DNA of 32,000 nucleotides from the NCBI GenBank assembly GCA_964426185.1, contig CAYRPF010000031.1:1-32000 (forward strand). Reading direction: 5' to 3'. This DNA comes from an uncultured archaeon. Its GTDB lineage: Archaea; Asgardarchaeota; Lokiarchaeia; Sigyniarchaeales; Promethearchaeaceae. A model generated the notes under the pieces. The model was not told the DNA's origin. It saw only the letters and a program-made list of their open reading frames with translations, and searched no databases. The translations under genes were made by a program, and so were the position numbers. Shown one piece after another: positions 25,902-26,225 of the stretch (the first letter of the stretch is position 1; each line of letters opens with the position of its first letter).

Positions 25902-26225
25902 GTGAAGAAAATTCCCAAATCTACCTTTATCTTGAAAATCAACACAGCATTGGCAGATACTCCGTTTTACGTCAAGATCGATCATGAAGAGATGTCAATC
26001 GACAGTATTTTTGCTGAAGCAATAACTGAACTGAAAAATGTTGGTAAACCTTTGCAATCACAGCAATTATCTGCATTGTATGAATCCCACCAAATATTTA
26101 ATCAAGGAAAACAAATTGAGAAAGGACACCTATTTTCTGAATTGAATCGAAATGTCCAAGATTTAAACGGAAATCCCGTTGAAATTGCAGAATTGGATAT
26201 GATAATGCACCATTCAGGTGGTTAG
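25902..26225 (+). CDS. Putative ubiquitin-like protein with C-terminal di-Gly
   Basis: 107 aa ending ...HHSGG*; strand-strand-helix pattern at the N-terminus and a terminal strand (IAELDMI). Confidence 0.55.
   Translation: MKKIPKSTFILKINTALADTPFYVKIDHEEMSIDSIFAEAITELKNVGKPLQSQQLSALYESHQIFNQGKQIEKGHLFSELNRNVQDLNGNPVEIAELDMIMHHSGG

Follow-up and report, generated by a model that had tools for sequence, protein, structure and literature searches.

A divergent ubiquitin-like protein ending in diglycine and its probable conjugation pathway in Asgard archaea

Can a small archaeal protein ending in an exposed diglycine serve as a protein modifier when no conjugation enzyme is encoded beside it? The question is raised by a 32,000-nucleotide stretch of DNA, hereafter the window, from contig CAYRPF010000031.1 of an uncultured archaeon of the Lokiarchaeia (family Promethearchaeaceae; assembly GCA_964426185.1). 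On the plus strand, positions 25902..26225 encode a ubiquitin-like protein (Ubl) of 107 residues, a genus-level second paralog in an uncatalogued HxGG family of beta-grasp proteins. The open reading frame (ORF) starts with GTG and, as noticed when only its letters had been read, finishes with CAT TCA GGT GGT TAG (26211..26225, plus strand), that is, with H-x-G-G and a stop codon, leaving the diglycine exposed and no pro-tail in this copy. ORFs with a terminal GG are rare in the source genome (5 of 2281 long ORFs, 0.2%). A promoter scan gave a signal at chance level. In our view the window protein most probably acts as the modifier in a dedicated Asgard Ubl conjugation pathway, the enzymes of which are encoded on another contig of the same genome, C37.

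The fold was considered first. An AlphaFold2 model built from 46 homologs reached a predicted local distance difference test (pLDDT) score of 90. It contains strands at residues 8-14, 22-26, 63-67 and 70-72, helices at 33-46 and 50-62, and a hairpin at 83-88/91-102. The best Foldseek matches were SUMO1, ubiquitin, the Caldiarchaeum ubiquitin and NEDD8 (E 4e-4 to 1e-3, the lowest for SUMO1), with 10-18% identity over the top ubiquitin-like matches. A wide VIA structure search returned beta-grasp domains throughout (best Z 8.7, root-mean-square deviation (rmsd) 2.0, 75 residues aligned), and the Atlas model was likewise beta-grasp. These predictions confirm a real beta-grasp ubiquitin-like fold for the window protein, as the sequence-only reading had proposed. 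The order of strands and helices given in that reading agrees with the model, though it had overlooked the hairpin insertion 83-102. The length of the protein is explained by two insertions, an extra helix at residues 50-62 (26049..26087, plus strand; DSSP on the model) and the long hairpin (26148..26207, plus strand), whose second strand continues into the tail in the model.

Resemblance in fold is not accompanied by resemblance in sequence. No real match to the Ubl was obtained in Pfam, NCBIfam, PADLOC or PDB sequences, the latter returning only designed helical repeats, and the 2023 PADLOC library held no match for the Ubl, nor for the E2-like protein and JAB protease described below. The ubiquitin profile PF00240 matched none of 46 family members, and neither did the Ufm1 profile PF03671. 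The ThiS, MoaD, SAMP and Urm1 profiles of Pfam and NCBIfam did not match the Ubl. The earlier view that the protein is none of ubiquitin, ThiS, MoaD or Urm1 by sequence is thereby upheld. UFM1 and Urm1 were missing from the best 50 fold matches, which is no argument against either. A DUF4298 match (E 0.0075) fell under the cut-off and was rejected as noise. Comparison with the genome's own ubiquitin-family protein, on C28, gave an hhalign probability of 0.7%, and no profile similarity was found to the Ubl of another operon of the genome, on C123.

A phmmer search against 1.84 billion representatives yielded about 50 true homologs. Among genomes bearing a name these occur only in Asgard archaea, in keeping with the divergent Asgard family suggested at the outset. 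The terminal diglycine is conserved: G106 and G107 are invariant in 46/46 aligned homologs, as is His63 (26088..26090, plus strand), and H104 is nearly so. In a survey of 400 Asgard genomes, 14 carry the family, namely the source genome, 10 of the 13 others of its family, one of Helarchaeota type and two of other classes, one of them labelled Heimdallarchaeota.

The protein had been called an orphan, and no E1, E2-like or JAB gene was found on the window's contig. The term holds for that contig and not for the genome. At four distant Asgard loci (L054, L055, L056 and L065) a homolog leads a run Ubl-E2-JAB-E1, to which a gene for a small alpha-helical protein is added at three of the four. The orthologous E2-JAB-E1 operon of the source genome is located at 23592-21221 of C37, on the minus strand, and is devoid of Ubl. 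Its E1 is 44-52% identical to the E1s of these operons, versus 27-37% for other ThiF genes. The E2-JAB-E1 block recurs across the family, JAB being missing there in one genome (G008). Co-occurrence points the same way: the genomes matched by the E2 profile are the very 14 that carry the Ubl, apart from two noise matches near E 1e-3, and in the three members of the family where the Ubl is missing, E2 is missing too and ThiF matches are weak only. Both cultured Lokiarchaeia possess Ubl, E2 and E1 orthologs, at DSAG12_00391 and DSAG12_00952-00955 in Promethearchaeum syntrophicum MK-D1 and at NEF87_002067, NEF87_003303 and NEF87_003305 in Lokiarchaeum ossiferum. Transcription of the MK-D1 orthologs is at an ordinary level, 180-255 reads per kilobase per million mapped reads (Ubl 255, E2 226, JAB 217, E1 245; PMC7015854 and its Supplementary Table 3).

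Several observations concern this operon and its surroundings. An actin gene follows it in five family genomes (L130:5902-7047, L131, L132, L134 and L135), immediately in four of them and after a few genes in the fifth; in MK-D1 the actin is DSAG12_00956. This adjacency may be ancestral synteny, or it may hint at a target. The source genome also has a second, stand-alone JAB of the C37 subfamily with an intact motif (L067:5829-6908, on C26). In genome G005, which has three Ubl-like matches, an enlarged operon (L136, on its contig C136) contains two E2 copies and a degenerate JAB next to an intact one.

In the products of the operon the motifs of such enzymes are intact. In the E2 candidate, of 255 residues, a C-terminal UBC fold is preceded by an additional N-terminal domain of about 100 residues. 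The best 30 rows of the VIA search with its model were all of the UBC fold, headed by the TSG101 UEV domain (Z 6.3, rmsd 4.4, 126 residues aligned), and the Atlas search retrieved Prok-E2_D (TM 0.53) and UEV, with modest scores. The motif HP(F/Y)...IC is found in 46/46 E2 homologs and Cys205 is invariant. For the JAB, the JAMM motif H-S-H-x7-S-x2-D is complete in 10/10 sequences. The E1 is a single ThiF domain of about 255-310 residues with a crossover loop of some 15-20 residues; its glycine loop, four zinc cysteines and crossover-loop Cys181 are all invariant. A complex prediction for the C37 E1 with the Ubl scored 0.02 and is not used as evidence.

This single-domain architecture, together with the GG end, the beta-grasp fold and the presence of a MoaD-type chain (6jc0, Z 7.7) among the tied VIA matches, would also suit a sulfur carrier of the ThiS, MoaD or SAMP kind, activated by a general UbaA-type E1 (C110) and possibly conjugated occasionally without E2. 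Such a role is quite improbable: ThiS- and MoaD-like proteins are already present in the genome, along with a ThiF gene beside a sulfur-relay cluster, and 0/46 family members match ThiS or MoaD profiles.

For a modifier pathway, the following scheme may be envisaged. From the fold, motifs, gene order and co-occurrence observed here, we infer its chemistry, its targets and a viral role. The minimal E1, of ThiF/UBA5 type, would adenylate Gly107 and then hold the tag as a thioester on Cys181. The tag would be handed to Cys205 of the E2 and joined to lysines of target proteins by an isopeptide bond, either directly or with the alpha-helical product of the fourth gene as an adaptor. The JAB would trim tailed precursors and remove the tag from its targets, trimming being superfluous for the window copy. 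Indeed, the proposal that the protein is mature without processing fits this copy, which ends at GG, and fails for most of its relatives, which carry a tail or a fused protein. The diglycine is the C-terminal end in 6 of 20 cellular copies, and the others have 1-3 extra residues. Because 14 of the 20 extend beyond GG, the family would normally need a trimming protease that the window copy can probably do without. Among 46 representatives, 21 run past GG into 28-296 unrelated residues, 20 have a tail of 1-5 residues, 4 end at GG and 1 has no GG. Tailed or fused copies would need the JAB protease.

How the window copy relates to its sister copy has some bearing on this scheme. The second Ubl of the source genome, on C11, ends GG-F and lies between tfe and cyclophilin/RIO2, the Ubl site met most frequently in the family. 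In the tree, the window copy falls into a genus-level clade (support 100/100) with a long stem branch (0.61), the stem sitting within a clade in which cellular and virus-like copies are intermingled. It might then be argued that the family is a real tag of which the window copy is a specialised or drifting, non-conjugated paralog that competes with the C11 copy or was captured back from a virus. That stem branch, the raised rate of nonsynonymous substitution (dN) and the stop codons in other second copies are in line with such a history. It is nevertheless unlikely: each of the three genomes of the genus keeps the gene, at one locus and with an intact HxGG, and dN is far below the synonymous rate (dS). 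Relative to the closest named ortholog, K9W44_17420 of Ca. Harpocratesius repetitus, a genome of the same genus, dN is 0.22 with a saturated dS of about 2.6, hence the window gene is constrained by purifying selection. In the genus Promethearchaeum, second Ubl copies are found at L015, L016 and L017, those at L015 and L017 adjoining a divergent TFB-like gene. The second copy is intact in MK-D1 (DSAG12_02166) and is broken by stop codons at L015 and L016.

A local alternative was also weighed. The Ubl could form a protein-modification unit with the acetyltransferases flanking it, for example as an acyl carrier or a substrate. The order Ubl-GNAT-methyltransferase is kept in the three genomes of the genus, but GNAT neighbours occur at no other homolog locus examined, and the family-wide links are with E2, JAB and E1; a unit of this kind is thus highly improbable. 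The RimJ/RimL-type GNAT downstream (26290..26925, plus strand), a neighbour within the genus only, and the divergent NMT-like GNAT (24489..25577, minus strand), a neighbour in two of the three genomes, are both probably outside the system.

A number of points nonetheless weigh against a dedicated conjugation pathway with the window protein as its tag. The cascade chemistry is deduced from motifs and by analogy with Bil biochemistry (PMC10557695). The model of the E2 has medium quality (pLDDT 70), Foldseek found no significant match for it, and the protein has HPF in place of HPN. No E3 and no target were identified. The 14 genomes with Ubl and E2 represent four independent lineages only. The evolutionary rate of the window copy is about 2.4 times that of the C11 copy (dN 0.22 vs 0.09), and this copy may have switched partners. 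Finally, the hosts of the virus-like contigs discussed below are assigned tentatively, from Ubl similarity alone.

Comparison with known systems helps to delimit the pathway. UFM1 ends in a single glycine and is processed by cysteine proteases. A set of Asgard Ufm1 proteins has been published (PMC12962969). The Asgard system recalls UFM1-UBA5-UFC1 through its minimal single-domain E1, crossover-loop cysteine and non-canonical E2, whereas its tag ends HxGG, has a JAB partner and does not match PF03671. With BilABCD of Types I and II (PMC10557695, PMC11601596) it shares the order Ubl-E2-JAB-E1 in complete Asgard operons, split in the source genome, as well as a predicted cysteine chemistry, the absence of a recognisable E3 and a need of JAB for precursors. 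It departs from Bil in that its E1 is a single adenylation domain rather than IAD-AAD-CYS, its E2 has the extra N-terminal domain, the Ubl of Promethearchaeaceae lies apart from the operon, and the loci are stable in the family and outside defence islands. Bil itself acts in defence against viruses by conjugation to virion proteins. On the best reading the Asgard tag works like Bil and yet is not Bil, for the E1 architecture differs. Identity with Bub (6E; PMC11601596), whose E1 and E2 are without catalytic Cys and whose protease is DUF6527, is ruled out, Cys181 and Cys205 being both kept in the Asgard enzymes. The class 6d of Iyer, Burroughs and Aravind (2006; PMC1779556) and PRTRC systems similarly have separate Ubl, JAB, E1, E2 and alpha-helical genes, and the Asgard E2 resembles Prok-E2_D clusters. 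However, it retains the classical His before Cys (HP in 46/46), the PRTRC ThiF model TIGR03736 scores 41 versus a cut-off of 144.75, and the PRTRC and Prok-E2 profiles do not match the Asgard Ubl, E2 or JAB. Canonical archaeal ubiquitin (Hatano 2022, PMC9192718; PDB 6fnn) is also a beta-grasp GG tag used in an E1-E2 relay, and a short pro-tail, to be cut by a JAMM protease, is frequent; the present tag differs by its 10-18% identity in structural alignments, its two insertions, its separate E1 and E2 and its presence in 14 of 400 genomes.

The source genome has such other systems separately: ThiS/MoaD-like proteins, the C28 protein (PF00240), an E1 on C57, an E2 on C85, and an operon on C123 that is Bil-like. 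The latter (C123:1304-5559) is arranged Ubl-E2-like-JAB-E1, with an E1 of 536 residues and interleaved genes that are possibly TIR-like and SIR2-like. It is a candidate for Bil-like defence, and its Ubl is unrelated to that of the window. Among several other GG-ending Ubls of the genome is a MoaD/Urm1-like protein ending SSLHGG (C27:5433-5798). Elsewhere in the window, a putative RuBisCO-like protein (296-1636) and a methylthioribose-1-phosphate isomerase-like gene (17506-18579) suggest methionine salvage, and a predicted D-Ala-D-Ala ligase-like ATP-grasp protein (21908-22999) occurs in this archaeal host.

The tag is also found on virus-like DNA. Among the cargos fused after GG are two phage families, a TFB-like protein and a full dUTPase that begins immediately after the diglycine; the contigs concerned bear terminase, DNA methylases, helicases and densely packed small genes, and further virus-like contigs have the unfused tag. 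As fused and unfused forms are intermixed in the tree, repeated fusion is suggested. The TFB-like cargo fused at L117 is weakly alike (E 2e-4) to the TFB-like gene separate from the Ubl at L103, a suggestive pair. Eukaryotic fusions of ubiquitin to ribosomal proteins and pestivirus insertions of ubiquitin are known. The Asgard fusions similarly place an N-terminal Ubl-GG before an unrelated protein, with presumed release by a host protease, but the tag is not ubiquitin and the fusions recur on virus-like DNA with many cargos. At L063 and L140 there is in addition an E1 nearest to that of C37 (45-50% identity). These two related mobile-looking contigs of about 50 kb, each with Ubl, E1 and an ERCC4-like nuclease gene, and L063 with TBP as well, may represent a new family of Asgard viruses or elements. 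Neither an E2 nor a JAB turned up at the virus-like loci examined, which are mostly short. Pattern scans of genome contigs and IMG/VR found no relatives, so that the viral label is based on gene content. ThiF genes are known in Helarchaeal viruses (10.1101/2021.07.29.454249), and the paper reporting them, as searched with relevant terms, does not describe the present tag.

Viruses or mobile elements bearing the tag, either by itself or fused cleavably to the N-terminus of another protein, might use or swamp the host pathway. It may be imagined, tentatively and with somewhat less than even chances, that this second complete Asgard Ubl pathway is a site of host-virus conflict, where the tag was captured repeatedly and fused for cleavage by the host JAB, the E1 is sometimes carried as a decoy or for hijacking, and the fast window paralog is a host response. 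As for the pathway's own function, defence and regulation are about evenly balanced: the stable synteny and the steady transcription speak for regulation, the patchy distribution and the capture by viruses for conflict.

The literature search turned up no paper that deals with the tag or the E2 or names the locus tags, and Asgard virus and eukaryotic signature protein papers, as searched with relevant terms, do not describe the system. One ortholog has the automatic UniRef name 'ubiquitin-like domain'; tag and E2 are otherwise annotated as hypothetical. Studies of Asgard ubiquitin have so far centred on the eukaryote-like system, from which the present cascade is separate and apparently complete. 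As both cultured Lokiarchaeia carry it, the system is testable now. If the proposal is true, the archaeal relatives of eukaryotes would have several parallel modifier pathways, one of them with a minimal UBA5-like E1, and the recurrent fusion of Ubl to cargo proteins on virus-like DNA would parallel, on the archaeal side, the ubiquitin fusions of eukaryotes.
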